Of a stretch of 64,000 nucleotides of DNA, positions 12,590-43,649 are shown in pieces (within the stretch, counting starts at the first letter, position 1; every line of letters starts with the position of its first letter). Under the pieces are notes generated by a model. The model saw only the letters and a list, made by a program, of their open reading frames with translations, was not told where the DNA came from and did no database searches. The position numbers and the translations under genes were made by a program. The DNA is from Candidatus Woesearchaeota archaeon (lineage in GTDB: Archaea; Nanobdellota; Nanobdellia; Woesearchaeales; GW2011-AR4): positions 985 to 64,984 of the forward strand of contig JACPMX010000016.1 of NCBI GenBank assembly GCA_016185755.1, in the 5' to 3' direction.

Positions 12590-12593
12590 TTTT

Positions 12594-17027: not shown

Positions 17028-17237
17028 TCTTCTTAAAAATACGATTTTATTTATAAATATTTCTATTTTTTAAGATATATATTTAAATATAGCTTAAAAT
17101 TTAAGCTAATACATGGCAATCTCCTGCGGAAATTAAGACATTATGTGAATTATGAATAACGCGCCCTTCGCAGCCCAGGAGCCATTTTAAAGCGCATAAG
17201 ATTTTTAAACTCACATCCAATTCTTGGCTTCATAAAA
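17028..17237. promoter_or_regulatory. Divergent AT-rich promoter region between the Lrp/AsnC gene and the wbuZ-like operon. It contains TTTATTTATAAATAT, TATA-like.
   Basis: 210-bp intergenic region with several TATA-like AT tracts, flanked by divergently oriented gene strings. Confidence 0.3.
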
Positions 17238-24466: not shown

Positions 24467-24925
24467 ATGATTGAAGGCGTCCAGATTAAAAAACTAAAAA
24501 AAATAACAGATGAGCGCGGATTCCTGATGGAAATGCTCAGGAATGACGACACTTTCTTCCAAAAATTTGGCCAGGTATACATGACCGTGTGCAATCCAGG
24601 ATACGTCAAGGCATGGCACTACCATAAAAAACAAAGCGATAATTTTGCTGTTGTAAAGGGGACGGGAAGGGTGGGCCTTTATGACAGAAGAAAAGACTCA
24701 ACGACAAAAGGAGATGTGATGGATATGACTATTGGGGAGGGCAACCCTGCGCTCGTATTCATCCCAAAAGGGGTTGTTCACGGATTTGAAGCCGTTGGAA
24801 ACGAGCCATGCTTCCTGATAAATACAGTGACAGAGCCTTACAATTACAATTCCCCCGACGAGGAAAGGATAGACCCGTTTGACAATGATATTCCATTTAA
24901 ATGGAAAAACAAAAAGGGTTGGTAG
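24467..24925 (+). CDS. RmlC-like cupin (dTDP-4-keto-6-deoxyhexose 3,5-epimerase or FdtA/QdtA-type 3,4-ketoisomerase)
   Basis: DERGFLMEM...AWHYHKKQSD...GVVHGFEAVGNEP...IDP.D matches RmlC-type cupins. At 152 aa it is short for RmlC, consistent with the ketoisomerase subgroup. Confidence 0.6.
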   Translation: MIEGVQIKKLKKITDERGFLMEMLRNDDTFFQKFGQVYMTVCNPGYVKAWHYHKKQSDNFAVVKGTGRVGLYDRRKDSTTKGDVMDMTIGEGNPALVFIPKGVVHGFEAVGNEPCFLINTVTEPYNYNSPDEERIDPFDNDIPFKWKNKKGW

Positions 24926-24927
24926 CT

Positions 24928-25926
24928 ATGCGTCTGTTAGTTACCGGGGGCTCGGGCTTTATAGGCTCTAATTTTATAAGGCTTATTCTTTCAAAATATC
25001 CGGGCTACAGTGTGATAAACCTTGACAAGCTTACTTATGCTGGCAACCCTGACAACCTTAAGGATGCTGAAAGCAACAGGAATTACAAATTTGTCAAAGG
25101 AGACATTTGCGATTCCAAGATTGTCAGAGATCTGATGAAAAAAACAGATGCAGTTGTCCATTTCGCAGCAGAAACACATGTCGACAGGAGCATAATGGAC
25201 GCCGGCACCTTTATACAAACGGATGTCTATGGGACATTTGTGCTGCTAAACGAGGCAAGAAAAAGCAACATAAGCAAGTTCATTCACATTTCCACTGATG
25301 AAGTGTATGGCAGCATAGAAAAAGGGTCATTTACCGAAGAAAGCTCGCTGAACCCAACAAACCCATATTCAGCTTCAAAAGCAGGGGCAGACAGGCTGGC
25401 ATATTCCTATTTCAAGACCTTTAATCTGCCGGTTTGCATATCAAGAAGCTCCAATAATTTCGGCCCGTACCAGCATCCGGAAAAATTCATTCCCCTGTTC
25501 ATAACCAACGCAATTGAAAACAAGCCACTGCCGCTTTATGGGGACGGGAAAAACAGGAGAGACTGGATATATTCACCGGATAATTGCCGAGCGATTGATC
25601 TGCTGCTGCACAAGGGAAAAATAGGAGAGGTTTACAATATCGGCGGCGGCAATGAAATGGAGAACATTGAAATCGCAAAAATGATAATTAAGGAGCTCGG
25701 GAAAAATGAAGACATGATAAATCTTGTCAGGGACCGGCCCGGGCACGATAAGAGATACTCGCTAAACAGCAGGAAAATCGGCCACCTTGGATTTAAGCCA
25801 GGCCGGGATTTCAAGAGCGCGCTAAAGGAAACTATAAGATGGTACACCAAAAACACCCAATGGTGGAAAAAAATAAAATCCGGGGAGTACAGACGCTATT
25901 ATGGCAGGCAATATAAAGCTGATTAG
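24928..25926 (+). CDS. rfbB: dTDP-glucose 4,6-dehydratase
   Basis: MRLLVTGGSGFIGSNF...YSASKAGAD... (YxxxK). Full-length RmlB match. Confidence 0.9.
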   Translation: MRLLVTGGSGFIGSNFIRLILSKYPGYSVINLDKLTYAGNPDNLKDAESNRNYKFVKGDICDSKIVRDLMKKTDAVVHFAAETHVDRSIMDAGTFIQTDVYGTFVLLNEARKSNISKFIHISTDEVYGSIEKGSFTEESSLNPTNPYSASKAGADRLAYSYFKTFNLPVCISRSSNNFGPYQHPEKFIPLFITNAIENKPLPLYGDGKNRRDWIYSPDNCRAIDLLLHKGKIGEVYNIGGGNEMENIEIAKMIIKELGKNEDMINLVRDRPGHDKRYSLNSRKIGHLGFKPGRDFKSALKETIRWYTKNTQWWKKIKSGEYRRYYGRQYKAD

Positions 25927-25985
25927 GCAATAACAGCAAAATTTATTATTACGGGCAAAAACCGGATGATTATTCAGATTGCAGG

Positions 25986-26732
25986 ATGCAGCAGGCAAAG
26001 AAAATGAACAAAATCAGGGGAGTGATACTTGCAGGAGGATTTGGCTCAAGGCTAGGCTTACTGACAAGAATAACAAACAAGCACCTGCTGCCGGTTTATG
26101 ACAAGCCAATGATATTCTATCCGCTGCAGAAGCTGCTTGACGCGGGAATCAAGGACATACTCATAGTTTCCGGTCCGGAATACTCCGGGCATTTTCTGAG
26201 GCTGCTGGGCTCCGGCAGGGAATTTGGCGTCAGGTTCACATATGAAATTCAGGACGAAGCCGGAGGCATTGCACAGGCCCTTGGGCTGGCTGAGGGCTTT
26301 GCAGACGGCAATAACGTAGCGGTAATTTTAGGAGATAACATATTTGAGGACAACCTTTCCAATGAAATAAACTCATTTACTGCCGGGGCTAAGCTGTTTT
26401 TGAAGGAAGTTGCCGATGCAAACAGGTTCGGAGTTGCGCAAATATCAGGAAACAAGATTATCGGCATTGAAGAGAAACCAAAAAAACCAAAATCCAGCTA
26501 TGCCGTTACAGGGCTATACCTTTATGACTTCAGGGTGTTTGACATAATAAAATCCCTTAAGCCATCTTCCCGCGGGGAGCTGGAAATCACAGACGTCAAC
26601 AACCATTATATAAAAGACGGAAAAATGTCATATTCAATAGTAAAGGGATTCTGGTCAGATGCAGGCACTTATGATTCCCTGTTAAGGGCATCAACACTCG
26701 TCAAGTCGTCCCGTGACAAGAAGAAAGAATAG
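25986..26732 (+). CDS. rfbA: Sugar-1-phosphate nucleotidyltransferase (glucose-1-phosphate thymidylyltransferase-like, short form)
   Basis: GVILAGGFGSRLGLLTRITNKHLLPVYDKPMIFYPL is the RmlA G-x-G-[TS]-R-L signature. Confidence 0.75.
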   Translation: MQQAKKMNKIRGVILAGGFGSRLGLLTRITNKHLLPVYDKPMIFYPLQKLLDAGIKDILIVSGPEYSGHFLRLLGSGREFGVRFTYEIQDEAGGIAQALGLAEGFADGNNVAVILGDNIFEDNLSNEINSFTAGAKLFLKEVADANRFGVAQISGNKIIGIEEKPKKPKSSYAVTGLYLYDFRVFDIIKSLKPSSRGELEITDVNNHYIKDGKMSYSIVKGFWSDAGTYDSLLRASTLVKSSRDKKKE

Positions 26733-26766
26733 AAATTGCCTAAATTTCAGCCCTAATAAAAATAAA

Positions 26767-27873
26767 ATGATACCCTTATTCAAGCCATGTTCCGATGAAG
26801 AGGAGATACGCGCGGTAGCCGAAGCTCTTAAGAGCGGATGGTGGGGCCTAGGTCCAAAGACAAAGGAATTCGAGGAAAAATTCGCAGAGTACATAGGCAC
26901 AAAGTATGCGGTATGCCTGAATTCAGCCACTGCAGCACTGCACCTTTCATTAAAAGCACTCGACCTTCCTGAAGGAAGCGAAGTAATAACAACTCCCATA
27001 AGCTTCATTTCCACGTCATTTGCTGCGCACTACAACAATCTAAAGCCCGTGTTTGCAGATGTTAGCAGAGATACACTTAACTTAGACCCGGAGGATGTGC
27101 GCAGGAAAATCACCCCTAAGACAAAAGCAATCATGCCAGTGCATTTTGGCGGCCATATATGCGATATTGAGGAGCTGACATCAATAGCTTCGGAGCACAG
27201 CCTTGCTATTGTTGAAGATGCTGCGCATGCTGCAGGAAGCGAGTTCAATGGCAAAAAGGCAGGAAGCTTTGGCAAATTCGGGTGTTTTTCGTTCCACGCT
27301 GTCAAGAACCTTGCAACAGGGGACGGTGGAATGGTAACTACTAATGACAAAAAGGCATATGAGAGGCTTGTGCGTTTGCGATGGCTTGGAATTGACAAAT
27401 CTACATTCTCAAGGACGCTGAACTCAAACTATACTTGGGATTATGATGTAAGGGAGCTTGGCTTCAAGTGCCACGGCAATGACATATTATCCAGCATAGG
27501 CATAGTGCAGCTTAAAAAACTGGAAAGCACAAATAAAAGGCGAAGAGAAATTTTTAAAGAATACAATGATGCCCTTAAGGATGTTGTGGAAACTCCATCA
27601 TGGAGAAAAGGCCATATCAGCGCATGCCATAATTACGTTGCGAAAGCCGATGACAGGGACAGCCTTATAGCCCACCTCAATGCCAATGGAATATCTGCAG
27701 GAGTGCATTACAAGCCCCTTTACCTTCATTCCTATTACAAAGGGCTGAAAGCTGACTGTCCAGTGTCAGATGAAGTATGGCAAAAAATGATATCCCTCCC
27801 CCTGTTTCCAGACTTAAAAGAAAAAGAAATAAGAAGGGTCATCAGCTGCATCAAGGAATTCTACGGGAAATAA
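26767..27873 (+). CDS. DegT/DnrJ-type PLP-dependent aminotransferase (dTDP-keto-6-deoxyhexose aminotransferase)
   Basis: MIPLFKP...GWWGLGPKTKEFEEKFAEYIGTKYAVCLNSATAALHL...FSFHAVKNLATGDGGMV. Start set at ATG 26767 (the track start 26713 is a GTG overlapping rfbA). Confidence 0.85.
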   Translation: MIPLFKPCSDEEEIRAVAEALKSGWWGLGPKTKEFEEKFAEYIGTKYAVCLNSATAALHLSLKALDLPEGSEVITTPISFISTSFAAHYNNLKPVFADVSRDTLNLDPEDVRRKITPKTKAIMPVHFGGHICDIEELTSIASEHSLAIVEDAAHAAGSEFNGKKAGSFGKFGCFSFHAVKNLATGDGGMVTTNDKKAYERLVRLRWLGIDKSTFSRTLNSNYTWDYDVRELGFKCHGNDILSSIGIVQLKKLESTNKRRREIFKEYNDALKDVVETPSWRKGHISACHNYVAKADDRDSLIAHLNANGISAGVHYKPLYLHSYYKGLKADCPVSDEVWQKMISLPLFPDLKEKEIRRVISCIKEFYGK

Positions 27874-30527: not shown

Positions 30528-30577
30528 AGGAAAAAGCTATGAGAAACTATTTAAATAGCTTTAGTTTCTTGGAGCGC

Positions 30578-31693
30578 ATGAAAATTGTAAGCATCGCAGG
30601 CACAAGGCCGAATTTCATGAAGATAGCCCCGCTGGCAAATGAATTCAAAAAGCATAAAATAGAGCATATTCTGGTGCACACGGGGCAGCACTATGACAGG
30701 GAAATGAGCAAACTCTTCTTTGACGACCTTAAAATACCAAAGCCGGATGCTGACCTTGGAGTGGGCTCTGAAACAAGAGAAAAGCAGATTGAAACCATAA
30801 AGCAAAAACTCGCAGCAATTCTTAAAAAAGAGAATCCGGACATTGTTATAGTTGTAGGAGACGTGAATTCAACCCTTGCAGGAGCTGAAGCAGCGCATGA
30901 ACTTGGCATAAAGGTTGCCCATGTCGAAGCAGGCCTGAGAAGCTTTGACAAGTCCATGCCGGAAGAAATCAACAGAATACGAACAGACGAGGTAAGCGAC
31001 TTTCTTTTTACAACAGAGAAAAGCGGCAATGAAAATTTGCTGAGAGAAGGCATAATCAGGGACAAAATATTTTTTGTAGGAAATGTCATGATAGACACAC
31101 TGTTAAAACACAGAGAAAAAGCAAAAGCAAAAAAATCAAAAATGCTGAAGGAACTGAAAATACATGAGAAAGATTATTGCGTTTTAACACTGCACAGGCC
31201 CAGCAATGTAGATAACAAAGAACCTTTTGAGAACATCCTATCCATCATCGAAAAAATAGGGGATAAAATAAAAATAGTCTTCCCGCTGCACCCAAGAACG
31301 CAAAAAAACCTGGAACTATTAGGATTGTCAAAAAGAATTGGAAAAATAAAAAACCTGATAATAACAAAACCTCTCGGCTATTTAGACTTCCTTTGCCTGA
31401 TGGACAACAGCAAGCTTGTCCTGACAGACTCTGGAGGAATACAGGAGGAAACAACTGTACTTGGGGTGCCGTGCATCACATTGAGAAACAGCACCGAGAG
31501 GCCGGTTACGGTTGAGGAAGGGACAAACATGATTGTAAGCACAGACCCAGTTAAGGTGGCAGAAAAGGCGTTGGAAATAATCAACAGCAATATAATGATA
31601 AATAAAAAAATCCCTGAAATGTGGGACGGGAAAGCCGCAGAAAGGATAGTCGAAATTATCCTGAAACAATTTAGCCAAAATGGGAAAAATTGA
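30578..31693 (+). CDS. wecB: UDP-N-acetylglucosamine 2-epimerase (non-hydrolysing)
   Basis: MKIVSIAGTRPNFMKIAPL...HTGQHYD...GDVNSTLAGA...HVEAGLRS matches the WecB/MnaA signature throughout. Confidence 0.85.
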   Translation: MKIVSIAGTRPNFMKIAPLANEFKKHKIEHILVHTGQHYDREMSKLFFDDLKIPKPDADLGVGSETREKQIETIKQKLAAILKKENPDIVIVVGDVNSTLAGAEAAHELGIKVAHVEAGLRSFDKSMPEEINRIRTDEVSDFLFTTEKSGNENLLREGIIRDKIFFVGNVMIDTLLKHREKAKAKKSKMLKELKIHEKDYCVLTLHRPSNVDNKEPFENILSIIEKIGDKIKIVFPLHPRTQKNLELLGLSKRIGKIKNLIITKPLGYLDFLCLMDNSKLVLTDSGGIQEETTVLGVPCITLRNSTERPVTVEEGTNMIVSTDPVKVAEKALEIINSNIMINKKIPEMWDGKAAERIVEIILKQFSQNGKN

Positions 31694-32579
31694 GAAAAGC
31701 AGGCAGGCAAGGTCTTTTAAGGAGCGGGCCAAAAAATACATCCCGCTGAGCATCCAGAAGCGGCTGTACAGCATAATAAAAAAAGCAAGGCACATAAAAA
31801 ACATAAAGTCAGGAAGGGTAATAACAAAAAAACACCTTCAGAACGCTTTTAGGCAGGCAGGCCTGAAGAGCGGAAATATTGTACTTGTACATTCTTCCCT
31901 TGGCAGGATAGGGCATGTGGAGAACGGGCCCGAAACTGTAATTGATGCATTGCTTGAGATAATCGGAAAAAGCGGGCTGCTTGTCATGCCGGGATTTTCA
32001 GCGCTGAATTACGACAAAAAGCGCAATATGTACGTATTTGATGTGCAAGACACCCCAACTTACACGGGAGCAATTCCGGAAGCTTTCAGAAAAAGAAACG
32101 GGGTGAAAAGAAGCATGTCCCCTACGCATTCATTGTGCGCTTTTGGAAAAAATGCCGGCAAGCTTATAGAAGGCCACGACAAGGTTGACAACCCATTCGC
32201 GATGAACGGCCCTTTTGGAAAGCTTTACAGGTGGAAGGCCAAGATAATGCTGCTTGGGGTTGACCACCTTGCAAACTCCTCCCTTCACATAGTGGAGGAC
32301 AAGCCTTATTTTCCTGTCAAAGTTTTCACCGAGAAATTCAGAGTCCTGATGAAGGACAATGGGAAAGAGAAAATAATAGAAGCCAGAAGGCATACTGACC
32401 ACTCAAGAAAAACAAGAGACCCGAACATAATGGAAAAATACTGCCTTAGGCACAAAGCAATGAAAATCCTTAAAATCGGCAACACAGAGCTAAGGGTGAT
32501 AGACATAAAGAAATTCGTCGATATGATGGACGGGCTTTGCAAAAGAGGCATAACAATCTATCCCGCAGGCATTAAATGA
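31680..32579 (+). CDS. AAC(3)-family (aminoglycoside 3-N-acetyltransferase fold, PF02522) acyltransferase in glycan context
   Basis: IVLVHSSLGRIGHVENGPETVIDALLEIIGKSGLLVMPGF...SMSPTHSLCAFGKNA parallels AAC(3) VHSSL..G.v.GG...vi.al...lG..GTLvmPt...S. Overlaps the wecB stop by 14 nt. Confidence 0.6.
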   Translation: MGKIEKSRQARSFKERAKKYIPLSIQKRLYSIIKKARHIKNIKSGRVITKKHLQNAFRQAGLKSGNIVLVHSSLGRIGHVENGPETVIDALLEIIGKSGLLVMPGFSALNYDKKRNMYVFDVQDTPTYTGAIPEAFRKRNGVKRSMSPTHSLCAFGKNAGKLIEGHDKVDNPFAMNGPFGKLYRWKAKIMLLGVDHLANSSLHIVEDKPYFPVKVFTEKFRVLMKDNGKEKIIEARRHTDHSRKTRDPNIMEKYCLRHKAMKILKIGNTELRVIDIKKFVDMMDGLCKRGITIYPAGIK

Positions 32580-33738
32580 TTTTTCTGTGCATTCCAGGCT
32601 TTGATTCCAGCATAAGTGAGTCCACAAAGAACTTGGCAGCCCAGTTTATGAAGCAGAAGGGGGCGTACCAGCCGTATATGGGGAACGCCCCTGGAATTCC
32701 CCCCCTAATCCCTTTATTGAGAGATTTCATATTCTGCACCCTTTTCATGTAATTGTTGCTTTTTTTTGCAGCAATCAAAAATTTTTCATCTTTTGTTTCT
32801 ATGAATAATTTTTGCCATATTATTGACATCTGGGCGTTCCCGGTCAAGCAGGACCATCTTACGCTGCTTTTCCAGCCTTTGCCAAAGCTCCCCGGAAGAG
32901 AGCCGTCTTTTCTTTGCGCATCAAGCAAGGCTGTTGCTGCCTTTTTTGCCGAGTCTATGTATCTTTTTTTCCCTAAGCAAATCCCTGACTCAAGAATGCC
33001 CCTTATTGAATATGCAATGGTGTGCACCAAAGGCTCCTGCCCGGGATAAAAGGCGTTGTTTTGCAGCCATCCGCTTTCCTGCTGCTGCGTTAAAGCCCAG
33101 TCTATATTTTTTTCAGCCGCTTTTTTGAATTCTGCATTTTTTGCCAGGCTATAAGCCATTAAAAGCCCCCACGCCGTCCTGGCATTGTATGTATGCACAT
33201 GATTAAGGTACTCGTGCTTTCTCCAGCACCCGTCTTTGTCCATGACTGACACAAGCCAGCAGGCCGCCTTTTCAGCGGCTTTTTTATATTCCTCCTTTTT
33301 TGATTCCTCATAGGCCCTGCAAAGCCCGAAAATCACCTGGCCTGTATTGAAGACAACGGGAACATTTTTTGTTCCTGCACCTGGGAAGGCCCCGGAAGGA
33401 AGCTGGCTCCTTAACTCAAAATCCGCCATCTCAAATGCCTTTTTTCTATAAACCGGATTTTTTGAAAAAACCGCATAATTAAAAAAAGTAGGTATGATGT
33501 AGCCGGTTGTCTCTATGTAGGAATGCGCCCACCCGTCAAACAAGGAGTAAAGGGCGCTTACACCCCCATCATTATTTTGCTCCTGAGCATAAGACAGCCA
33601 TTCCATTGCAGCCTTAATGTGGGAATTGTTTGAGAGCGTTTTATTATAGGCCCGAAAGCAATCCTTAACAGAAAGAGATGAAAGATAATAGAAATTCCTT
33701 GGGTTAATCCCCTTTATAAAATATTTTAAGTATCTCAT
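32572..33738 (-). CDS. (alpha/alpha)6-barrel protein (AGE / six-hairpin-like or terpenoid-cyclase-like repeats); function uncertain
   Basis: Repeated aromatic/Gly-rich hairpin motifs (NNDGGVSALY, DKDGCWRKHEY, QRKDGSLPGSFGKGW) typical of toroid folds. No catalytic assignment possible. Confidence 0.35.
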   Translation of the reverse strand: MRYLKYFIKGINPRNFYYLSSLSVKDCFRAYNKTLSNNSHIKAAMEWLSYAQEQNNDGGVSALYSLFDGWAHSYIETTGYIIPTFFNYAVFSKNPVYRKKAFEMADFELRSQLPSGAFPGAGTKNVPVVFNTGQVIFGLCRAYEESKKEEYKKAAEKAACWLVSVMDKDGCWRKHEYLNHVHTYNARTAWGLLMAYSLAKNAEFKKAAEKNIDWALTQQQESGWLQNNAFYPGQEPLVHTIAYSIRGILESGICLGKKRYIDSAKKAATALLDAQRKDGSLPGSFGKGWKSSVRWSCLTGNAQMSIIWQKLFIETKDEKFLIAAKKSNNYMKRVQNMKSLNKGIRGGIPGAFPIYGWYAPFCFINWAAKFFVDSLMLESKPGMHRKII

Positions 33739-34562
33739 TCTTGATAATCATAAAATCCTTTCTTTGTCTTCCTGCCAAGCCTTTTCTCCTTAAGCATACT
33801 AAGCAGGATCGGGGAAGGAGCGTATTTGCCGTCCTTAAGCTCTTCCTGCATGTTCTTAAGTATATCTACAGTCACATCAACACCGACAAGATCTATAATC
33901 TTCAGCGGCCCAATAGGGTGGTTTGCACCCAGCACCATGGCCTTGTCGATTTCCTCTTTAGTGGCCAGATTTTCATTTAGGATATTTGCAGCCTCGTTAA
34001 GCATGACAAACAGCATCCTGTTGAGGAGGAATCCCGGCGCATCCTTCACGATGACAGCATCCTTGCCCAATTTTTTCACTAATTCCAGTATTTTATCCAC
34101 TGTTTCCTTGGATGTGAATTCAGGAACAGCTATCTCTACAATCTTCATATGGACTGCAGGGTTTGAGAAATGAAGGCCGATTATATTATGCCTGTTTTTG
34201 CAGTTTTTAGCTATGAGCGCGATTGGTATGGATGAAGTGTTGGAAGCAATGATTGTGCCGCTGCCAGCTATATCGCCAAGCTTTTCGAATATCTCCTGCT
34301 TTGCCTTGAGGTCTTCCTTGATGCTCTCAATTACGAAATCCCTGCCTTTCAAGTCCTGTATTCTTGTTGCGACAGAAAGCTTGCCTGGCAATCCTTTTTG
34401 CCTTGATTTCTCGGAAAATCCCCTTAAGGCTTCGCCATTTCTTGAGCATATAGTAACATTAAATCCATACTTCAAAAACAGCTCTGCAATCTGCAGCCCC
34501 ATGGTGCCGGAACCCACTATGCCTATCTCCCTTATTTCCATGTTTTTTGCTAACTTCAGCAA
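33735..34562 (-). CDS. 3-hydroxyacyl-CoA dehydrogenase family protein (Hbd-like, NAD-binding)
   Basis: IGIVGSGTMGLQIA Rossmann motif, ...SNTSSIPI...GLHFSNPAVHMKIVEI...GFLLNRM, full-length 3HCDH_N/3HCDH architecture. Confidence 0.75.
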   Translation of the reverse strand: MLKLAKNMEIREIGIVGSGTMGLQIAELFLKYGFNVTICSRNGEALRGFSEKSRQKGLPGKLSVATRIQDLKGRDFVIESIKEDLKAKQEIFEKLGDIAGSGTIIASNTSSIPIALIAKNCKNRHNIIGLHFSNPAVHMKIVEIAVPEFTSKETVDKILELVKKLGKDAVIVKDAPGFLLNRMLFVMLNEAANILNENLATKEEIDKAMVLGANHPIGPLKIIDLVGVDVTVDILKNMQEELKDGKYAPSPILLSMLKEKRLGRKTKKGFYDYQE

Positions 34563-34659
34563 TTTTATAAATATATCGAAGCAAAATGCCTGCAGATCCC
34601 TTTATTTTTTGCGCCGGCAACCAGATAATTTTATAAACCACCCTTGGTTTTTCCAGCGC

Positions 34660-35592
34660 ATGAAAATACTGGTTACAGGCGGAAACGGCTTCATAGGGCA
34701 TACCTTGGTGAGGCATTTGCTTAATGAGGGAAACGAAGTAAAAGTCATAGACATCAAGCCAATCAAGTTCACGCATCCAAAGCTTGAGTTTGTTAAGAAA
34801 TCGGTTCTTGAAGACATAAGATGGGAAATGAGGGACTGCGATGCAGTCTATCACCTTGCAGCTGAGCTTGGAGTTATAAGCTCTGACAGGAGGCCCCTGA
34901 ATACCCTGGCAGTCAACATAGACGGAACTGTAAATGTCTTCAGGTGCGCCCTTGGCACAGGCGTGAAGAAGATAGTCTATACTTCCTCTTCTGAAGTTTA
35001 CGGGGAGGCAAGGGAAATTCCACTGAAGGAAGACAGCCCTAAAAGCCCTGTGAGCATTTACGGTGTTTCAAAACTGGCAGCTGAGATGTATTCGAAAGGA
35101 TATGTGCAGGAATACGGGATGGACATCAACCCGGTAAGGCTGTTCAATGTCTACGGGCCCGGACAGGGATCTGACTGGGTCATGCCCATATTTATCCAAA
35201 AAGTGCTGAATAATGAGGAGCCTGTTGTCTTTGGAGACGGAAGCCAGGTCAGATGCTTCACTTACATTGCAGACATTGTCAGCGGGATAGAGGCAGTCAT
35301 GAAGAAAGGGCTCAAGGGAGAGGCTTACAATATTGCCAATACCGACCAGATCACGATGAAGAAGCTTGCCGAGCTGATAATAAAAATATCAGGCAAGAAA
35401 CTAAATCCGAAAATTGCCGGCTTTGGGAAAGAGACAAGGGCAAGGGAAAGGGAGATAATGACAAGAGTGCCTTCAATTGAAAAACTGAAAAGCCTTGGGT
35501 GGAAGCCTGAGATCAATGCTGAGGAAGGAATCAAAAAGACGTATGAGTGGTACAAAAGCAATCTAGGCAAAGAGGAATTGTTTTATGAATAA
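34660..35592 (+). CDS. NAD-dependent sugar epimerase/dehydratase (UDP-hexose 4-epimerase-like extended SDR)
   Basis: MKILVTGGNGFIGH...YHLAA...YGVSKLAAE (YxxxK). The track ORF 34198.. extends upstream in-frame through the oppositely oriented Hbd-like gene, so the true start is taken as ATG 34660. Confidence 0.8.
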   Translation: MKILVTGGNGFIGHTLVRHLLNEGNEVKVIDIKPIKFTHPKLEFVKKSVLEDIRWEMRDCDAVYHLAAELGVISSDRRPLNTLAVNIDGTVNVFRCALGTGVKKIVYTSSSEVYGEAREIPLKEDSPKSPVSIYGVSKLAAEMYSKGYVQEYGMDINPVRLFNVYGPGQGSDWVMPIFIQKVLNNEEPVVFGDGSQVRCFTYIADIVSGIEAVMKKGLKGEAYNIANTDQITMKKLAELIIKISGKKLNPKIAGFGKETRAREREIMTRVPSIEKLKSLGWKPEINAEEGIKKTYEWYKSNLGKEELFYE

Positions 35593-36885
35593 TCAGCTTC
35601 TCCCAATTCCATGGTAAAGGATCCCCATTGACTTGATTCTCTCCTTGTCAAGGCAGTTCCTGCCGTCGATGACGACAAGGATTTTATGCTTCTTTAGCTT
35701 TTCCAGGCCCATTTCCTTGAATTCTCTGTGGTCTGTCACTAAAATTATATAGTCTGATTTATTCAGCAATTCATCCAAGTCCTTTACATTGCCTCCATTT
35801 TTGACATGAGGGTCAAAAACAAAGACTTCTGCGCCTTTCGTCTTAAGCACATTTATGACTTCAAATGCGGGGCTTTCTCTTGTGTCATCGACATTTGCCT
35901 TGTATGCAAGCCCGAGAACCCCCACTTTCGCGCCTTTTAGGGCTTTTTTTATTTTTTTCAGCTCATTCTCAAGAAGCTCGACGGTATAATGCGGCATGTA
36001 ATTATTTATTTTACGGGCCAGCTTTAGGAATTCATGATTGAAACCAAGCTGCTTTCCTCTTTCTATCATGTAATAAGGGTCCTGGGCGATGCAGTGCCCG
36101 CCCACCCCTGCACCAGGGTAATGCGGCATAAAAGCAAAAGGCTTTGTTGAAGCGACCTGAATCACTTCCATTATGTCAATCCCGGCTTTGTCGAAACTTT
36201 GCGCCATTTCATTCACAAATGCAATATTTACGTCTCTGAATGTGTTCTCTATTATCTTGGTCGCTTCTGCAGTCTTCAAATTGCTTACTTCAGTAACGCT
36301 TGCATCTATAATAGACCTATAGAATTCAGCAGCTTTTTCAGCAGCTTCTTTTGTTATGCCTCCAACCACTCTCGGCAGATTGTTGACTTTAAACTGCTTG
36401 TTGCCCGGGTCGATCCTTTCAGGGCAATGCGCGACCAGAACATCATTCCTGTAAGCGTCAAATTTCTGCTTTTTCAATATAGGCAAAACAATTTCCTCTA
36501 TTGTTCCTGGATAAATTGTTGACTCTATAATCAAAAGGGTTCCCGGCTTTATAAATTTTGAAATTGTCGATGCAGAATTCATGACTGCAGTCAAGTCTGG
36601 GGAATTGTTCCTGTCAACAGGCGTTGGAACGCAGACAATCACAACATCAGAGTTTGGGATGCACTCATTTGGATCAGCGGTTGCATGTATCCTGTTCCTG
36701 AGGCTTTTTAATTTGCCTACTATATATTCATCATCAATCGGGCTGGTTTGCCTGTTTACAGAATCGACTTTGTTTTTGTCAACGTCAAAGCCATAAACCT
36801 TAAGGCCCTTCTCGGCGCAAAGGCAGGCAAGAGGCAGCCCCACATAGCCCAGTCCCACTATTGTTACTGACACCATCAAAGCCAA
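35593..36885 (-). CDS. Nucleotide-sugar dehydrogenase (UDP-ManNAc/UDP-GlcNAc 6-dehydrogenase, WecC/WbpA-like)
   Basis: VTIVGLGYVGLPLA...GGHCI (catalytic Cys)... UDPG_MGDP_dh N, central and C-terminal domains. Confidence 0.85.
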   Translation of the reverse strand: MALMVSVTIVGLGYVGLPLACLCAEKGLKVYGFDVDKNKVDSVNRQTSPIDDEYIVGKLKSLRNRIHATADPNECIPNSDVVIVCVPTPVDRNNSPDLTAVMNSASTISKFIKPGTLLIIESTIYPGTIEEIVLPILKKQKFDAYRNDVLVAHCPERIDPGNKQFKVNNLPRVVGGITKEAAEKAAEFYRSIIDASVTEVSNLKTAEATKIIENTFRDVNIAFVNEMAQSFDKAGIDIMEVIQVASTKPFAFMPHYPGAGVGGHCIAQDPYYMIERGKQLGFNHEFLKLARKINNYMPHYTVELLENELKKIKKALKGAKVGVLGLAYKANVDDTRESPAFEVINVLKTKGAEVFVFDPHVKNGGNVKDLDELLNKSDYIILVTDHREFKEMGLEKLKKHKILVVIDGRNCLDKERIKSMGILYHGIGRS

Positions 36886-37017
36886 AAGACTCTTGGCTGG
36901 TTTATAAATTTTTGTGCCATAGATTCCAACTGCCGTTTAGAAAGATTTAAATATGATTATTCGTCCTTGTTTCAATTGGTATAACTCTATAAACTTAATT
37001 TGAATCCTGGCCCTAAA

Positions 37018-38529
37018 ATGAAAATACTATTAATAAATCCCCCTTTGGTCGGAAGCAAAAATGAGCTGCCAAGGATAGGCGTTCCTCTCGGTATCCTGCA
37101 GATTGCGGCTTTCCTGGAAAAAAAAGGGAAAAAAATCGAAGTATTTGACTCTTTAACATATTCTCCAAAATTGGAAACAGCAGAGCTGGACGAGAATACC
37201 ATACAAATAGGGGCATCCTGGGAATGCATAAAGGACAAGATAAGGGAATCAAGGCCAAACTATGTCGGAGTCGCCTGCCAGTTTTCCATTCTTGTGCCGA
37301 CCATCATCCAGCTTTCAAAGGCAATCAAGGAAGCAGACGGCAGCGTAAAAGTCATTGTAGGCGCCAACCCCGCCACCGCCAACCCGGATATTTTCCTGGG
37401 CGAGCCTTCTATAGACTTTATCATAATGTCAGAAGGGGAGCACACGATGAATGAGCTTATTGACTGCCTGGAGGAAAACAGGGACTTCAGTACAATTCCA
37501 AACCTTTCTTACAAGAAAGACGGAAAGATTGTGCAAAACCCAATCAAATTCATATACGAGCTGGACGAGCTGCCATTCCCGGCAATTCACCATTACAACC
37601 TGGAGAGATATTTTGAGCTTGTCGAGAAGGGAATGGGCGGAAGGGTACTGACTTCTTCCAACTCCAACAGGCAGTTTTCAGTTGTTACAAGCAGGGGGTG
37701 CCCGTTTTTCTGCAATTTCTGCTCAATTTTCATCCATATGGGAAGAGACTTAAGGAAACATTCGAGCAGCTACATCCTGGATTATCTGGAGATGCTGGTG
37801 GATAAGCATAAAATAGACCACATAAACTTCGAGGATGACAACCTTACTTTGGACCTCAAGAGGTTTGAAGAAATTCTTGACGGCATTATCGAAAGAAAGC
37901 TGAATATAACATGGGACACACCAAACGGCATAAGGGCAAACCTTCTTGATGAAAGAATAGTGGCAAAGGTGAAGGAGACTGGGTGCACTGGGCTAAAAAT
38001 CGGAGTCGAGTCAGGAAACCAGGATGTACTGGATAAAATCATTGTCAAGGGACTGAGGCTGGAAAGCGTAGAAAAAATGTCAAAACTATGCCACAAATAC
38101 AGGATTCCGCTGAGTGCTTTCTTTATCATAGGATTTCCCGGCGAAACCAAAAAAAACATCCAGGAGACGCTGGACTTTGCATACATGCTGAAGAAAAAAT
38201 ATGATGTAAACCCAATACTGCACAACGCAATTCCCCTGCCGGGAACGGCGCTTTACAACGAATGCAAGGAAAAAAACTATTTAGTCGAGCGAAAAGAGGA
38301 AAAGTCGTGGTTCAATTACGGAGAAATCGCGATAAAGACAGGGGAGTTTGACCCGCAGTTCCTGATGGAGAAAACAAAATCGTTTTATAGGAACATCCTG
38401 TTCCTGGAAAGCCTGAGCGTGCTAAAAAGCCCTGCAAAAATTATGGGCTATATGGGCATGCTGGCCAACCAGCCGAGAAAATTCTTCAGCCTGTCGAAGA
38501 GGCTTTTTGCAATAGTCTTTAATGCATGA
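37018..38529 (+). CDS. B12-binding-domain radical SAM enzyme (class B radical SAM)
   Basis: N-terminal MKILLINPP...GVPLGILQIAAFL (cobalamin-binding Rossmann) then the radical SAM core SRGCPFFCNFCS (CxxxCxxC). Confidence 0.75.
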   Translation: MKILLINPPLVGSKNELPRIGVPLGILQIAAFLEKKGKKIEVFDSLTYSPKLETAELDENTIQIGASWECIKDKIRESRPNYVGVACQFSILVPTIIQLSKAIKEADGSVKVIVGANPATANPDIFLGEPSIDFIIMSEGEHTMNELIDCLEENRDFSTIPNLSYKKDGKIVQNPIKFIYELDELPFPAIHHYNLERYFELVEKGMGGRVLTSSNSNRQFSVVTSRGCPFFCNFCSIFIHMGRDLRKHSSSYILDYLEMLVDKHKIDHINFEDDNLTLDLKRFEEILDGIIERKLNITWDTPNGIRANLLDERIVAKVKETGCTGLKIGVESGNQDVLDKIIVKGLRLESVEKMSKLCHKYRIPLSAFFIIGFPGETKKNIQETLDFAYMLKKKYDVNPILHNAIPLPGTALYNECKEKNYLVERKEEKSWFNYGEIAIKTGEFDPQFLMEKTKSFYRNILFLESLSVLKSPAKIMGYMGMLANQPRKFFSLSKRLFAIVFNA

Positions 38530-39257: not shown

Positions 39258-40451
39258 TCAAATCTTCGAAGCTATGCTTATTATTTTCGGGTAAAACTTC
39301 GGGTTGAACAGTATGTTAACAGTATTAAAGCACTCATGCGTGCAAAAACAGTTTGTACCGCGGATAAACTTTACCTCATCCATTGATTTCTGCGACAACC
39401 ATAGCTTTCTGAAATCAAGGCCATAATCACGTATGTTCCCCATCTTGTGCGAAGAGCCCAAGATTTCGCACGGATAAACATCGCCTTCAGGGTACATGAC
39501 TCCGCTCAAGTTGCCGGAGTAGCACGGCATCTGGTACTGGTTGGTCTGGTAAATCCGCTGAATCTGTTCATTCAGAATTATCCTTGCTGCAGTTGCCAGC
39601 TTGTTTCCTTTGAACCTCCTTTGGCCAGTCATCTTCTTCGAATAAAACAAGTCGTCCCTGAATTTTACAGCCTCCCTGTAAAGATTCATGTCCAGATTCA
39701 GGTTCACTTTTTCCTTGGGATTTCCCCTTACAAGGTTGATGGCTATATTATCCGGCTTTGCTATTTCGTATATTCCTTTTATTACATCAATAAAATTATT
39801 CTGATTCTGGGAGGTGAAAGTGGTTATAGTCCCTATGTTTATCCTGTCGTATTTTTTCTGCAGCTCCTTGAGCGCCATTATTGTGCCAATGGCCCTGTCA
39901 AAGCATCCTTTTATCCCCCTTATCTTCTCGTGCTCCTCATGAAGCCCGTCTATCGAGATTTGCTGGTTCAGCACGAGCTCAGGGCACCACTCCATCATGT
40001 TCGTTATCTGATTTATCATTCTTTCCTTAAAAAACCCGTTTGAGGGTATAGAAACAATCGGGACCCTTGTGTTATCATAAAATATCTTCACTATCCTGTC
40101 GATATCCCCCCTGACATACGGCTCCCCGCCGGTTACCACCAGATGCAGCAGCGGGTCCATTGTCTTTGTCATCTTGTCAATCTCTTCCAAGGTCAGCTCG
40201 CTAAACTTCTTGTTAAGGCTGTCGTGGTAAAAGCAATGGGAGCAGGTCATATTGCACCTGCTTGTGGGATATAAAATAAAATAAGAAGGCAGCTGGTTTT
40301 TCTTGCTGAAAGCCTTTGACAAATGGCTGTAATAATTTTTAGGCCGATTGCCGTTGGTGCCCATTTCAGGGGCATGCTCCTGCGAGGTGGCATCTTCCTT
40401 TTTATCCAGGCTTTCACCGGAAGGAACCTTTATTTCAATTACCTGCTCCAT
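39258..40451 (-). CDS. Radical SAM domain protein (C-terminal Cys-rich, SPASM/twitch-like)
   Basis: YPTSRCNMTCSHCFY (CxxxCxxC) and GGEP glycine-rich SAM motif. C-terminal CFCTHEC cluster. Confidence 0.7.
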   Translation of the reverse strand: MEQVIEIKVPSGESLDKKEDATSQEHAPEMGTNGNRPKNYYSHLSKAFSKKNQLPSYFILYPTSRCNMTCSHCFYHDSLNKKFSELTLEEIDKMTKTMDPLLHLVVTGGEPYVRGDIDRIVKIFYDNTRVPIVSIPSNGFFKERMINQITNMMEWCPELVLNQQISIDGLHEEHEKIRGIKGCFDRAIGTIMALKELQKKYDRINIGTITTFTSQNQNNFIDVIKGIYEIAKPDNIAINLVRGNPKEKVNLNLDMNLYREAVKFRDDLFYSKKMTGQRRFKGNKLATAARIILNEQIQRIYQTNQYQMPCYSGNLSGVMYPEGDVYPCEILGSSHKMGNIRDYGLDFRKLWLSQKSMDEVKFIRGTNCFCTHECFNTVNILFNPKFYPKIISIASKI

Positions 40452-41634: not shown

Positions 41635-42357
41635 ATGAAAGTCATGATTACAGGCGGGAACGGCGCACTCGGGAAATCGCTGAAAAAGGCTTTTCCTGAT
41701 GCATACTTCCCAACACACCGGGAAATGGATGTTGCAGATGCTGATGGAGTAAATAAGGCTGTCCTAGGATACAAGCCTGACGCACTGATTCATGCAGCGG
41801 CATTTGTAGACATAAGGGGATGCGAGAATGACAAGAAAAAGGCATGGGATACAAATGTAGAGGGCACGCAAAATATTATGGATGCGCTCAGTAGGGCAAA
41901 CAAAAACTGCTATCTTATCTACATCTCAACTGCATGCGTCTTTGCAGGGGAGCATGAGAAATACTATACGGAAGACGACATCCCATCACCAAAGAATTAT
42001 TACTCCTTCACAAAATTATGCGGGGAACTTGTTGCAAGGCAGCATCCAAATACATGCATCATAAGGACGAATTTTGTCCCAAAAGAGCAGTGGAAATACC
42101 CGAAAGCATTTACAGACAGGTTCGGGACTTATCTTTTCACAGACAATGCTGCACAGGGAATCAAGGACGTTTTTGATAAAAAAGAAAAAGGGATAATCCA
42201 CATTGTTGGAGACAGGAGAATGAGCATGTACGAGCTGGCAAAGCTCGCAGGCTCAAAAGATGTTGGAAAGATCACATTAAAGGAATACGATGGCCCAATG
42301 GTGACTGTTGACATGAGCCTGTCCACCAATAGATGGAAAAAATACAAAATCCGCTGA
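41635..42357 (+). CDS. RmlD-like NAD(P)-dependent sugar nucleotide reductase (dTDP-4-dehydrorhamnose reductase family)
   Basis: MKVMITGGNGALG...DALIHAAAFVDIRGCE...YSFTKLCGE (YxxxK). About 240 aa, short SDR of the RmlD_sub_bind type. Confidence 0.65.
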   Translation: MKVMITGGNGALGKSLKKAFPDAYFPTHREMDVADADGVNKAVLGYKPDALIHAAAFVDIRGCENDKKKAWDTNVEGTQNIMDALSRANKNCYLIYISTACVFAGEHEKYYTEDDIPSPKNYYSFTKLCGELVARQHPNTCIIRTNFVPKEQWKYPKAFTDRFGTYLFTDNAAQGIKDVFDKKEKGIIHIVGDRRMSMYELAKLAGSKDVGKITLKEYDGPMVTVDMSLSTNRWKKYKIR

Positions 42358-42359
42358 CT

Positions 42360-43037
42360 ATGAAGCCTAAAATCCTGTTTTGCGGATACAGGGAATGGTC
42401 GCTTAAAATTTATGGCCATATCGAGGGCAAGTTCAGGGATAAGGCAGAGCTGAAGCTGGCAAGGGACGAGAAGGAATTTGAAGACACAATAAAATCATTC
42501 AATCCTGGCCTGGTATTGTTCATAGGCTGGAGCTGGATAATAGACAAGGGCACAGTAAGCAAATTTTTATGCATATGCCTGCATCCCTCGCCTCTGCCAA
42601 AATACAGGGGGGGCAGCCCGCTGCAGCACCAGATGATAAACGGCGAAAAGGAAAGCGCAGCCACGCTTTTCAGGATGAACGACAAGGTCGACAAGGGCCC
42701 GATATTATGGCAGGAGAAGTTTTCCCTGGATGGGAATTTAAGCGAAATTTTCGAAAGAATGTATGAGAAAGGAAAAAAAGGAACTGAAGAAATAATAAAA
42801 AAATTCCTCAATAATGAAAGCTTTGAGGGAACGGCACAGGATGAAAGCAAAGCCACATACTTCAAAAGGAGGACACCGGAAATGAGCGAAATAAAAGCAG
42901 AGGATTTTGAAAATAATACTGCCGAGGAGCTTTACAACAAGATAAGGGCGCTGCAGGACCCCTATCCAAATGCATTTATAAGGTGCAGGAACAACACAAA
43001 ACTTTATATTCAGAAAGCAAAAATTGATGAAAAATGA
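42360..43037 (+). CDS. Formyltransferase-fold protein (sugar N-formyltransferase / Fmt-PurN-like)
   Basis: CLHPSPLPKYRGGSPLQHQMING...D.G.I matches the formyl_trans_N HxSLLPxxRG and catalytic His/Asp arrangement. Confidence 0.7.
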   Translation: MKPKILFCGYREWSLKIYGHIEGKFRDKAELKLARDEKEFEDTIKSFNPGLVLFIGWSWIIDKGTVSKFLCICLHPSPLPKYRGGSPLQHQMINGEKESAATLFRMNDKVDKGPILWQEKFSLDGNLSEIFERMYEKGKKGTEEIIKKFLNNESFEGTAQDESKATYFKRRTPEMSEIKAEDFENNTAEELYNKIRALQDPYPNAFIRCRNNTKLYIQKAKIDEK

Positions 43038-43645: not shown

Positions 43646-43649
43646 CACT

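Follow-up and report, generated by a model that had tools for sequence, protein, structure and literature searches.

A 64-kb stretch of Candidatus Woesearchaeota archaeon DNA (contig JACPMX010000016.1; the whole 64,000 nucleotides analysed are called the window) carries a cassette centred on two genes. One encodes an acyltransferase of the aminoglycoside 3-N-acetyltransferase, AAC(3), fold (Pfam Antibiotic_NAT; hereafter AAC3-like), and the other a protein modelled as an (α/α)6 toroid. A third gene encodes a member of the 3-hydroxyacyl-CoA dehydrogenase family (Hbd-like). The cassette very probably serves glycan tailoring rather than resistance or butyrate metabolism, and we have high confidence that the AAC3-like and toroid proteins are a functional pair. 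This pairing is unprecedented and is conserved across both prokaryotic domains. Our preferred explanation, to which we assign a probability of roughly 45%, is that the two proteins would tailor a lipid-linked glycan, with the Hbd-like enzyme supplying a 3-hydroxybutyryl donor. An earlier reading made from the sequence alone had placed the three genes among sugar genes, and their open reading frames (ORFs), families and surroundings bear this out. The three ORFs lie at the following positions.

31680–32579, plus strand: AAC3-like acyltransferase, Antibiotic_NAT (AAC(3)-fold) family (PF02522, E = 1.2e-52)
32572–33738, minus strand: predicted single-domain (α/α)6 toroid, cytoplasmic (AlphaFold2 model, Foldseek)
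33735–34541, minus strand: Hbd-like, 3-hydroxyacyl-CoA-dehydrogenase family (3HCDH_N, PF02737, E = 1.9e-43; 3HCDH, PF00725, E = 4.1e-31)

The pairing emerged from a survey of 82 non-redundant toroid loci (86 fetched) from Archaea and Bacteria, whose six-frame ORFs were clustered. An Antibiotic_NAT gene is present in 20 of the 82 loci and directly adjoins the toroid gene in 17; the loci with both genes include Woesearchaeota, Proteobacteria (Dechloromonas, Zoogloea, Neptunomonas, Contendobacter), Bacteroidota and Gemmatimonadota. The adjoining partner of the toroid belongs to one of three mutually exclusive types: Antibiotic_NAT, a formyltransferase-like protein together with a PaaK-like ligase, or an ATP-grasp-like protein. 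The formyltransferase-like gene occurs in 34 loci and is in most cases accompanied by an adenylating ligase that is PaaK/F390-synthetase-like (32 loci, adjoining in 28); the ATP-grasp-like gene occurs in eight. In a rough neighbour-joining tree of the toroids, the partner type follows phylogeny: the AAC3-linked toroids fall into one archaeal and one proteobacterial clade, plus three isolated branches. Glycan genes surround the toroid in all surveyed loci, including glycosyltransferases of family GT1 (63 loci), an AsnB-like amidotransferase (40) and a Wzy/O-antigen-ligase-like protein (33). A further cluster, gene family 11, found in 21 loci, we take to be an exosortase, recognised by eye from its representative sequence.

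Gene fusions point in the same direction. Among the best 150 toroid representatives, 24 are 549–1035 aa long, and the 20 of these that were scanned revealed toroids fused to GT4, GT2, GT26 (WecG/TagA; P0279 and P0313), methyltransferase, Formyl_trans_N, LicD and Antibiotic_NAT domains. The 733-aa protein P0307 joins Antibiotic_NAT (residues 60–281) to a toroid (residues 347–720), retains both motif sets intact and comes from three independently assembled contigs; P0353 is built in the same way. Adjacency in distant phyla combined with such Rosetta-stone fusions is strong evidence that the AAC3-like and toroid proteins act on the same substrate. The toroid is the constant core of the module and not an incidental interposed gene. 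The sequence-only reading had instead coupled the AAC3-like enzyme with the dehydrogenase and treated the toroid as the gene that happened to lie between them, an arrangement that the survey overturns: the Hbd-like gene is present in only three of the 82 toroid loci (four of the 86 fetched, counting L002, a near-duplicate of L001).

Two loci show further acylation genes nearby. Beside the natural Antibiotic_NAT–toroid fusion of L173 (7273–11082) lie genes for an acyl carrier protein (ACP), a holo-ACP synthase (ACPS), a DUF1839 protein and an acyl-CoA-dehydrogenase-like protein. In bacteria, too, the module thus has genes for unusual acyl-chain tailoring beside it. Beside the AAC3-like gene of L171 (12821–18739), an AlgX/SGNH protein, an MBOAT protein, a 78-aa protein, an AMP-binding enzyme and ACPS form a set that resembles Dlt or AlgI/J/X and suggests that this island harbours another acylation system.

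In the window, the cassette is embedded between genes for nucleotide-sugar enzymes.

30539–31693, plus strand: wecB, non-hydrolysing UDP-GlcNAc 2-epimerase (Pfam Epimerase_2, E = 2.8e-110; TIGR00236, 354.7 bits against a cutoff of 210)
34542–34659: AT-rich divergent intergenic region of 118 bp, with TTTATAAATA / TTTTATAAA boxes 20–30 nt upstream of each start
34660–35592, plus strand: short-chain dehydrogenase/reductase (SDR) of the NAD-dependent sugar epimerase/4,6-dehydratase type, divergent from the Hbd-like gene (Pfam Epimerase, E = 3.7e-49)
35593–36885, minus strand: nucleotide-sugar dehydrogenase of the UDP-N-acetyl-D-mannosamine (UDP-ManNAc) dehydrogenase type (TIGR03026, 437 bits against a cutoff of 190)

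The end of wecB is overlapped by 14 nt by the start of the AAC3-like gene, and the same wecB→AAC3-like pair occurs in L001 and L088. The reported overlap with wecB therefore holds, with the addition that the AAC3-like gene, on the plus strand, converges on the toroid gene: the two lie tail-to-tail, and their 3′ ends overlap by 8 nt (32572–32579). On the minus strand, the Hbd-like and toroid genes overlap by 4 nt and are translationally coupled. Rather than forming a single operon, the three genes fall into two groups, with the AAC3-like gene coupled to wecB on one side and an Hbd→toroid operon, convergent with it, on the other. The Hbd ORF was called as 33735–34562 with a TTG start at 34562, although its start is likely the ATG at 34541, which agrees with the 268-aa public annotation (P0121). 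The TATA-like TTTATAAATA / TTTTATAAA boxes probably represent archaeal promoters from which Hbd→toroid and the SDR gene would be transcribed. Convergent AAC3-like and toroid stops overlapping by 4–8 nt recur in archaeal loci (the window; L003, 9164–9167; L171, 11959–11966), and both transcripts must consequently overlap in antisense; in bacterial loci the two genes are co-directional.

The SDR occupies the same place in L001, L003–L006, L008, L010, L088 and L171 and is a syntenic partner of the cassette; it scores about 152 bits with LegB-like and dTDP-glucose 4,6-dehydratase-like NCBIfam models, under their cutoffs. The best specific model for the 35593–36885 dehydrogenase is the archaeal UDP-ManNAc dehydrogenase, at 321 bits and under its cutoff of 750. 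Homologues of this dehydrogenase flank the toroid in L003, L008, L010, L012–L014, L017, L020 and L068 and on haloarchaeal plasmids. Judged by their family assignments, WecB and this dehydrogenase would together yield UDP-N-acetylmannosaminuronic acid (UDP-ManNAcA). The 900-aa UDP-sugar dehydrogenase of a related Woesearchaeota locus (L171, 4996–7698) carries an intein (PF14890).

The AAC3-like protein has the features of a working enzyme. PF02522 aligns to residues 69–283 with 179 bits (cutoff 25), covering profile positions 1–227 of 232. The Pfam scan detects no other fold in it, such as GNAT (Acetyltransf_1); the Antibiotic_NAT and GNAT folds are distinct (PMC8956665). Comparison with PDB sequences matches 21 structures of the family, the best being YokD (2nyg, 3e-20) and FrbF (3sma, 1e-19). 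The catalytic motif of the family, T-x-Φ-H-Φ-A-E with its His/Glu dyad (PMC8956665), appears as S-S-L-H203-I-V-E206, in which the changes Thr→Ser and Ala→Val are conservative; at least 90% of 21 toroid-linked members keep the His and Glu. All NCBIfam resistance models fail on the protein: AAC_3 gives 103.9 bits against 270, AAC(3)-IV 90 against 420 and AAC(3)-II 65 against 480. YokD, FrbF and BA2930 have no aminoglycoside activity (PMC8956665). These comparisons describe an active-looking, putatively acyl-CoA-dependent acyltransferase for which a resistance role is effectively excluded. An N-terminal extension of about 45 residues is rich in Lys and Arg (16 in the first ~47 residues), and its basic character is compatible with association to the membrane surface. 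No precedent for polysaccharide synthesis involving an AAC(3)-fold enzyme, or for Hbd genes in O-antigen or capsule loci, was found in full-text literature searches.

The AlphaFold2 model of the toroid protein (pLDDT 87.7, pTM 0.90) comprises one helical domain with 14 helices. Foldseek returned 263 PDB matches at E ≤ 1e-3, the top ones all being (α/α)6 enzymes; the nearest neighbours are GH88, cellobiose 2-epimerase and GH76, with TM scores of about 0.7 at 11–16% identity. According to the model, the protein is a single-domain (α/α)6 toroid. Sequence comparison gives weak, partial matches at the level of the repeats, to SQHop_cyclase_C, Pec_lyase, C5-epim_C and GH88 in Pfam. The C5-epim_C match (PF06662) reaches 37.2 bits against a cutoff of 23.3 and is confined to residues 132–186 (profile 31–86 of 188), with the partial SQHop_cyclase_C and Pec_lyase matches being equally strong; GH88 stays under its cutoff (25.4 against 26.6 bits), and the D-glucuronyl C5-epimerase structure 4pw2 is matched only at E = 0.75. 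Searches of PDB sequences with the single sequence and with a profile likewise produced only weak repeat-level matches (GH76, LanCL, drimenyl-PP synthase). The suggestion that the barrel is related to N-acylglucosamine 2-epimerase (AGE) or to a C5-epimerase survives at the level of the fold, given the (α/α)6 architecture and cellobiose 2-epimerase neighbours at TM ~0.7. For AGE it does not extend to the sequence: no Pfam or NCBIfam match to the AGE/cellobiose 2-epimerase family was detected, the PDB-sequence profile search recovers none, and the likeness is of fold alone at 14–16% identity.

The toroid family is large. In total, 6870 proteins score E ≤ 1e-3 among the scored candidates, and an exhaustive search of 50%-identity representatives yields 3369 clusters at E ≤ 1e-3, 2097 at E ≤ 1e-10 and 1006 at E ≤ 1e-30; at least 582 GTDB species genomes carry a member. 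The source labels of these homologues conflict, ranging over hypothetical, GH88, GH127, terpene cyclase/mutase and prenyltransferase repeat. Among 14 homologues of 51–76% identity, 96 alignment columns are invariant, including about 23 aromatic residues as well as His, Cys, Asp, Glu, Arg, Lys and Tyr; H40, E76, H182, R187, E235, H239, C297 and D373 are among the invariant residues, and SYxETTGYI, FNTGQ and NWAAKF are motifs of the family. A degradative role of the GH88 or pectate-lyase kind was rejected because no signal peptide or transmembrane segment is visible by eye, the loci are always biosynthetic, and the toroid is fused to glycosyltransferases. In L089 (3565–4736), two ORFs (199 and 197 aa) stand in place of the single toroid gene of the otherwise near-identical L088 (3577–4743); a frameshift, a pseudogene or an assembly error is possible.

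The Hbd-like protein belongs to a short clade with a distinctive gene context. Its best PDB match is the 3-hydroxybutyryl-CoA dehydrogenase 9fbd (E = 1.7e-58), and it falls short of the NCBIfam Hbd models (PRK05808, 245.9 bits against 408; PRK07819, 218 against 319; PRK07530, 212 against 420). The clade comprises about 19 clusters of 257–271 aa with at least 49% identity, separated by a clear gap from the canonical Hbds (280–288 aa, 40–46%), and shows a 16-residue deletion after β2 in the N-terminal domain. The catalytic residues S103, H124, N174 and E136 are invariant in the clade alignment, and the end of β2 carries Ser-Arg in place of the NAD-type Asp. By general Rossmann-fold rules, this replacement suggests that the enzyme uses NADP(H) and would operate in the biosynthetic, reductive direction.

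All recovered contexts of the short clade are glycan loci. The Hbd-like gene lies directly upstream of, and is translationally coupled to, the toroid gene in eight loci. The complete triad, in which Hbd→toroid converges on AAC3-like, is present in six independent loci with varying flanks (the window, L001/L002, L008, L088/L089, L171 and the P0132 contig), and Hbd→toroid stands at contig ends in L007 and L172. The dehydrogenase is a lineage-specific accessory that, within toroid loci, is always coupled to the toroid. Elsewhere, the L087 operon combines PIG-L, LpxD-like, Hbd-like, ACPS (a phosphopantetheinyl transferase) and GT2 genes without a toroid partner, and the gene for the protein next-closest to the clade (46% identity), in L090, overlaps a PglD-type N-acetyltransferase gene. 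Sugar N-acyltransferases of three folds, namely AAC3-fold, LpxD-type and PglD-type, are consequently found near the short clade. Two DPANN loci (L087, 2608–6605; L001, 1751–4754) carry an LpxD-family N-acyltransferase with PIG-L and a phosphopantetheinyl transferase, a lipid-A-like logic in archaea without lipid A; the L001 orthologue scores 248 bits with the LpxD model NF002060 (cutoff 207).

Thiolase, crotonase, acyl-CoA dehydrogenase and electron-transfer flavoprotein (ETF) genes are absent from the window and from eight short-clade loci. A scan of metagenome contigs with the short-clade profile gave, among the matches listed, canonical Hbds only (37–44% identity), and 80 such loci served as a control. 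These loci contain thiolase (18), crotonase (15), acyl-CoA dehydrogenase (11) and the two ETF genes (9 and 7), and never a toroid or AAC3-like gene. The lack of fatty-acid or butyrate partners around the short clade effectively excludes the butyrate or polyhydroxybutyrate (PHB) scenario and supports a role in providing 3-hydroxyacyl donors for sugar N-acyltransferases. Accordingly, the view that none of the three genes is a stray resistance or housekeeping gene stands; the resistance models failed and the short Hbd clade occurs in glycan loci only. Aminoglycoside acetylation and a partnership with butyrate or PHB genes, which the sequence-only reading had kept in view, are effectively excluded by the AAC_3 score (104 bits against 270) and by the lack of thiolase and crotonase genes in the window and the eight related loci. 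Taken as a whole, that reading is partly supported.

A recent study of Vibrio cholerae provides a possible parallel for the toroid. Deletion of vpsJ leads to accumulation of the unmodified bactoprenyl-PP-Glc-ManNAcA disaccharide, and VpsJ was proposed as a new class of C5-epimerase that converts lipid-linked D-ManNAcA to L-GulNAcA before tailoring; the study likens its AlphaFold model to GlcNAc 2-epimerase and to the cellobiose 2-epimerase 3WKF, and VpsH is a CapK/phenylacetate-CoA-ligase-like glycine ligase acting downstream (PMC13463779, mBio, July 2026). In the toroid loci, WecB and/or UDP-ManNAc dehydrogenase is encoded within 10 kb in eight of the ten archaeal cases, and WecB and/or a UDP-ManNAc-type dehydrogenase also on two haloarchaeal megaplasmids and in the bacterial loci L015, L017, L020, L022, L068 and L077. 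GT26 enzymes, with which the toroid is also fused, transfer ManNAc(A). When the toroid half of a GT26 fusion was used as query, no Vibrio protein appeared among the best 120 matches. By analogy, we tentatively regard the toroid as a VpsJ-like C5-epimerase, a possibility that we rate slightly below even.

In our preferred explanation, WecB and the UDP-ManNAc dehydrogenase would make UDP-ManNAcA, and a glycosyltransferase would place the ManNAcA residue in a lipid-linked glycan intermediate. The toroid would then remodel the placed residue, our best guess being VpsJ-like C5-epimerisation to L-GulNAcA, after which the AAC3-like enzyme would N- or O-acylate the remodelled unit, so that the two may act sequentially on one sugar residue. 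The Hbd-like enzyme, added upstream of the toroid in this lineage, would reduce acetoacetyl-CoA (or an ACP thioester) to a 3-hydroxybutyryl thioester, and the decoration would then be 3-hydroxybutanoyl instead of acetyl. That the Hbd-like enzyme supplies this donor to the AAC3-like enzyme is plausible and unproven. The gene identities, folds, motifs, synteny, fusions and missing fatty-acid and butyrate partners are observed; we infer which step precedes which, the epimerase reaction, the identity of the acyl donor and the atom that is acylated.

Several observations weigh against this explanation. The Hbd-like gene adjoins the toroid and not the acyltransferase, and it is missing from most loci with both AAC3-like and toroid genes, which indicates that the acyltransferase works without it. 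The 64-kb window contains no thiolase as a source of acetoacetyl-CoA. Canonical Hbd makes the (S)-isomer, while many glycans carry (R)-3-hydroxybutanoyl groups; the 3-hydroxybutanoyl transferases FdhC, QdhC, QhbC, PsaG/H and LgaH/I work without a dedicated dehydrogenase gene. Regarding the acceptor, characterised Antibiotic_NAT enzymes all N-acylate amines (PMC8956665), whereas a free amine is missing from both ManNAcA and GulNAcA. Amines that the window could offer are the dTDP-4-amino sugar (24467–27873) and the product of a PIG-L deacetylase, neither of whose genes adjoins the AAC3-like gene, and in many bacterial AAC3-plus-toroid loci no aminotransferase or known deacetylase was found within 10 kb. 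WecB or the dehydrogenase lies within 10 kb in just eight of 72 bacterial toroid loci. Finally, the activity of VpsJ is itself only proposed, from a deletion phenotype (PMC13463779).

In another explanation, the Hbd-like enzyme and the toroid would form a redox-assisted epimerase pair. The dehydrogenase would oxidise the C4 hydroxyl of the uronate, thereby acidifying C5-H for the toroid or giving a 4-keto or 4-epi product, and the AAC3-like enzyme would just acetylate with acetyl-CoA. Such a pair would fit the coupling to the toroid in eight loci, with the Hbd-like gene never beside that for the AAC3-like enzyme, as well as the 16-residue deletion and the scores under the Hbd cutoffs. A uronic acid is a β-hydroxy acid, as is the compound on which L-gulonate 3-dehydrogenase, a member of this family, acts; the 3HCDH family also includes non-CoA sugar-acid and carnitine dehydrogenases, and lambda-crystallin matches were obtained. 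The VpsJ study speculates that C4 oxidation could enable C5 epimerisation (PMC13463779). However, the Hbd-like protein is far nearer to true Hbd (E 1e-58, 40–46% identity) than to L-gulonate dehydrogenase or lambda-crystallin (E 1e-17), most toroid loci lack it, and its clade also occurs without a toroid, overlapping LpxD- or PglD-type N-acyltransferase genes and beside a phosphopantetheinyl transferase, a context that fits acyl-thioester chemistry. We consider the redox pair unlikely. A bolder version is more doubtful still: the toroid and the short Hbd-like protein would be a two-component epimerase of lipid-linked ManNAcA, with C4 transiently oxidised, C5 inverted and Antibiotic_NAT capping the product, and the AAC(3) fold would have been ancestrally glycan-tailoring together with the toroid, resistance being a later offshoot.

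Other explanations assign the toroid a different task. It may be a non-catalytic adaptor that presents the polyprenyl-linked glycan to a paired or fused tailoring enzyme or glycosyltransferase, as the chemical diversity of its partners (GT4, GT2, GT26, methyltransferase, formyltransferase, LicD, Antibiotic_NAT, ligase, ATP-grasp), its prenyltransferase/squalene-cyclase-type repeat matches and source names, and the roughly 23 invariant aromatics could suggest; the very strong conservation, typical of an enzyme, of polar residues (His, Glu, Arg, Asp, Lys, Tyr) across the 96 invariant columns makes this improbable, as does the V. cholerae vpsJ deletion, which blocks a chemical step ahead of tailoring (PMC13463779). 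It could also be a new de-N-acetylase or another generator of amines, whose product the AAC3-like enzyme or a formyltransferase would re-acylate in the manner of LpxC/LpxD or of PIG-L with LpxD-like. This proposal would account for the strict amine modifiers among the exclusive and fused partners (Antibiotic_NAT, Formyl_trans_N) and for the many bacterial loci with no aminotransferase or known deacetylase within 10 kb; a parallel PIG-L module with LpxD-like or formyltransferase exists in the same archaea, and the invariant His, Cys, Asp and Glu could bind a metal. Nevertheless, the weak family matches of the toroid are all to uronate-acting or epimerase-type toroids, fusions to glycosyltransferases and methyltransferases need no amine, and we know of no (α/α)6 amidase precedent; we rate it somewhat lower than the adaptor. 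The notion that the AAC3-like enzyme confers aminoglycoside resistance and the Hbd-like enzyme serves butyrate, PHB or β-oxidation metabolism, in a sugar neighbourhood that is coincidental, draws on family names only (Pfam "Aminoglycoside 3-N-acetyltransferase" and best matches named "3-hydroxybutyryl-CoA dehydrogenase"). It is scarcely credible in view of scores under every AAC(3) cutoff, nearest solved relatives without aminoglycoside activity, toroid synteny and fusions across domains, and an Hbd clade that, unlike the 80 control loci, never lies beside thiolase, enoyl-CoA hydratase, acyl-CoA dehydrogenase or ETF genes.

The surroundings of the cassette agree with a glycan-tailoring role. 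Between 24 and 50 kb, Pfam and NCBIfam scans assign nearly all cassette neighbours to sugar pathways or glycosyltransferases, and the window holds many GT1, GT2, GT9 and PMT-like transferases. Best matches of the central proteins are annotated as Candidatus Woesearchaeota or Nanoarchaeota, the gene repertoire is DPANN-typical, GC content is about 43%, and Rfam and tRNA scans of the window detected no rRNA, tRNA or other Rfam family. The window is one large glycan island of the Woesearchaeota (DPANN) type, with the following sets outside the cassette.

10076–18657 (set with its own LbH acetyltransferase, 10076–16547): complete nonulosonic-acid (legionaminic/pseudaminic-type) set, with a PseB/LegB-like dehydratase, DegT, a left-handed β-helix (LbH) acetyltransferase, a NeuC-like protein, two NeuB paralogues, a CMP-transferase and an AsnC-type regulator
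12185–12631: LbH acetyltransferase of the nonulosonate set, 148 aa, under the 150-aa ORF filter
24467–27873: dTDP-4-amino-6-deoxyhexose set, with cupin, RmlB and RmlA (24467–26732) plus DegT
26713–27873, plus strand: DegT-family sugar 4-aminotransferase (PF01041, E = 3.1e-116), beside RmlA/RmlB and cupin
41635–44618: RmlD-like, formyltransferase, PIG-L and GT2 block
42333–43037 and 43034–43645, plus strand: formyltransferase-like gene overlapping a PIG-L de-N-acetylase gene (Pfam Formyl_trans_N and PIG-L)

A role for the AAC3-like enzyme in the nonulosonic-acid pathway is unlikely because that cluster has its own LbH acetyltransferase. A HisF/HisH-like pair after the nonulosonate set may make an acetamidino group. 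The best NCBIfam models for the DegT gene at 26713–27873 are PseC, ArnB and dTDP-4-amino-4,6-dideoxygalactose transaminase, all under cutoff; as a predicted 4-aminotransferase, its product could supply a sugar amine, and no gene for an acyl-CoA N-acyltransferase adjoins it. The formyltransferase-like and PIG-L genes (42333–43645) appear from their families to be a second deacetylate-and-re-acylate module of the island. Its PIG-L protein is 50% identical to that of L087, and orthologous modules of relatives carry an LpxD-type acyltransferase in place of the formyltransferase, once with an Hbd-like gene too. ACPS and LpxD-like genes were looked for in the window and are absent, and none of thiolase, crotonase, acyl-CoA dehydrogenase, ETF, ACP or phosphopantetheinyl transferase was found in the 64 kb.

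Other parts of the island contain less expected genes. Sulfation-related genes at 2583–10036 comprise a sulfatase-family protein, an adenylylsulfate (APS) kinase, a PHP phosphoesterase and three uncharacterised ORFs, and sulfatase-family genes lie directly beside toroid homologues on the megaplasmids of Halobellus limi (L175, 7482–8894) and Haladaptatus (L176, 5853–7223); this hints at sulfated archaeal glycans containing uronic acid. A B12-binding radical-SAM enzyme (best models P-methyltransferase and HpnJ-like, all under cutoff) and a second radical-SAM protein are encoded at 37000–38529 and 39258–40451, and a B12-binding radical-SAM gene also adjoins the AAC3-like gene on the P0132 contig and lies near the toroid in L014. 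The segment 54000–64000 has a GC fraction of 0.29–0.36, compared with 0.41–0.45 elsewhere, and large ORFs without family matches; a 1441-aa subtilase-domain protein (59148–63473) falls in this low-GC stretch, which is possibly a separate surface-protein or acquired region.

If our explanation is correct, the Antibiotic_NAT fold, known almost only from resistance, would have a widespread physiological role in glycan tailoring and a defined protein partner. The toroid family, which exceeds 1000 clusters at 50% identity, is carried by at least 582 species genomes and is annotated inconsistently, would gain a testable function and be tied to the newly proposed C5-epimerase VpsJ and, through it, to the long-missing route to L-GulNAcA-type sugars. 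Genome-reduced DPANN archaea would carry a dedicated enzyme for an unusual glycan acyl donor, which bears on how episymbionts build their host-contact surfaces. The cassette would represent a new form of glycan acyl-tailoring, in which the AAC(3)-fold and toroid pair is supplemented by a lineage-specific dedicated dehydrogenase. Cultured carriers make these hypotheses testable; they include Dechloromonas denitrificans ATCC BAA-841 (L040), Neptunomonas antarctica S3-22 (L074), Rhodanobacter spp., Halobellus limi (L175), which has the toroid only, and Haladaptatus sp.

Comparison with known systems places each component near a characterised enzyme. Like canonical Hbd and PaaH1, the Hbd-like protein has both Pfam domains and the catalytic Ser, His, Asn and Glu, at 40–46% identity; unlike them, it is 16 residues shorter, carries Ser-Arg at β2 and has glycan genes as partners rather than thiolase, crotonase, acyl-CoA dehydrogenase and ETF. 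FdhC is a GNAT enzyme. Together with QdhC, QhbC, PsaG/H and LgaH/I, it installs N-(3-hydroxybutanoyl) groups on nucleotide-linked amino sugars or nonulosonate precursors within glycan loci, but those loci are bacterial and without a dedicated 3-hydroxyacyl dehydrogenase, and the fold differs from that of the AAC3-like protein, which matches PF02522 only. The LpxC/LpxD logic of de-N-acetylation followed by 3-hydroxyacylation is matched by the relatives L087 and L001 (PIG-L, LpxD-family and phosphopantetheinyl transferase in one operon, with the Hbd-like gene in L087), whereas the window has a formyltransferase in place of the LpxD-like gene and no ACPS, and its Hbd-like gene is part of the toroid and AAC3-like module. 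FrbF, which N-acetylates CMP-5′-3-aminopropylphosphonate and thus acts on a nucleotide-linked biosynthetic intermediate, YokD and BA2930 are non-resistance Antibiotic_NAT proteins like the AAC3-like enzyme and have the His/Glu motif in common with it. They are only about 25–35% identical to it over the core, and the AAC3-like enzyme differs in its basic N-terminal extension, its obligate toroid partner or fusion, and its location in a glycan locus instead of a phosphonate cluster or prophage. The toroid shares its single-domain fold with cellobiose 2-epimerase/AGE and the GH88 six-hairpin enzymes (TM 0.70–0.73), which act on free sugars or degradation products, while the toroid lies in biosynthetic loci. 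A possible counterpart is the VPS system of V. cholerae, in which tailoring uses the LbH O-acetyltransferase VpsG and not an Antibiotic_NAT enzyme; the vps cluster has no Hbd gene. VpsJ, likened to the toroid by context and described fold, is likewise cytoplasmic and without informative sequence matches, and 3wkf is also among the Foldseek matches of the toroid. VpsJ acts ahead of the tailoring enzymes, and its partners, WecB and UDP-ManNAc dehydrogenase (VpsA/B), GT26 (VpsK) and a CapK/PaaK-like ligase (VpsH), are of the same kinds as those of the toroid family.

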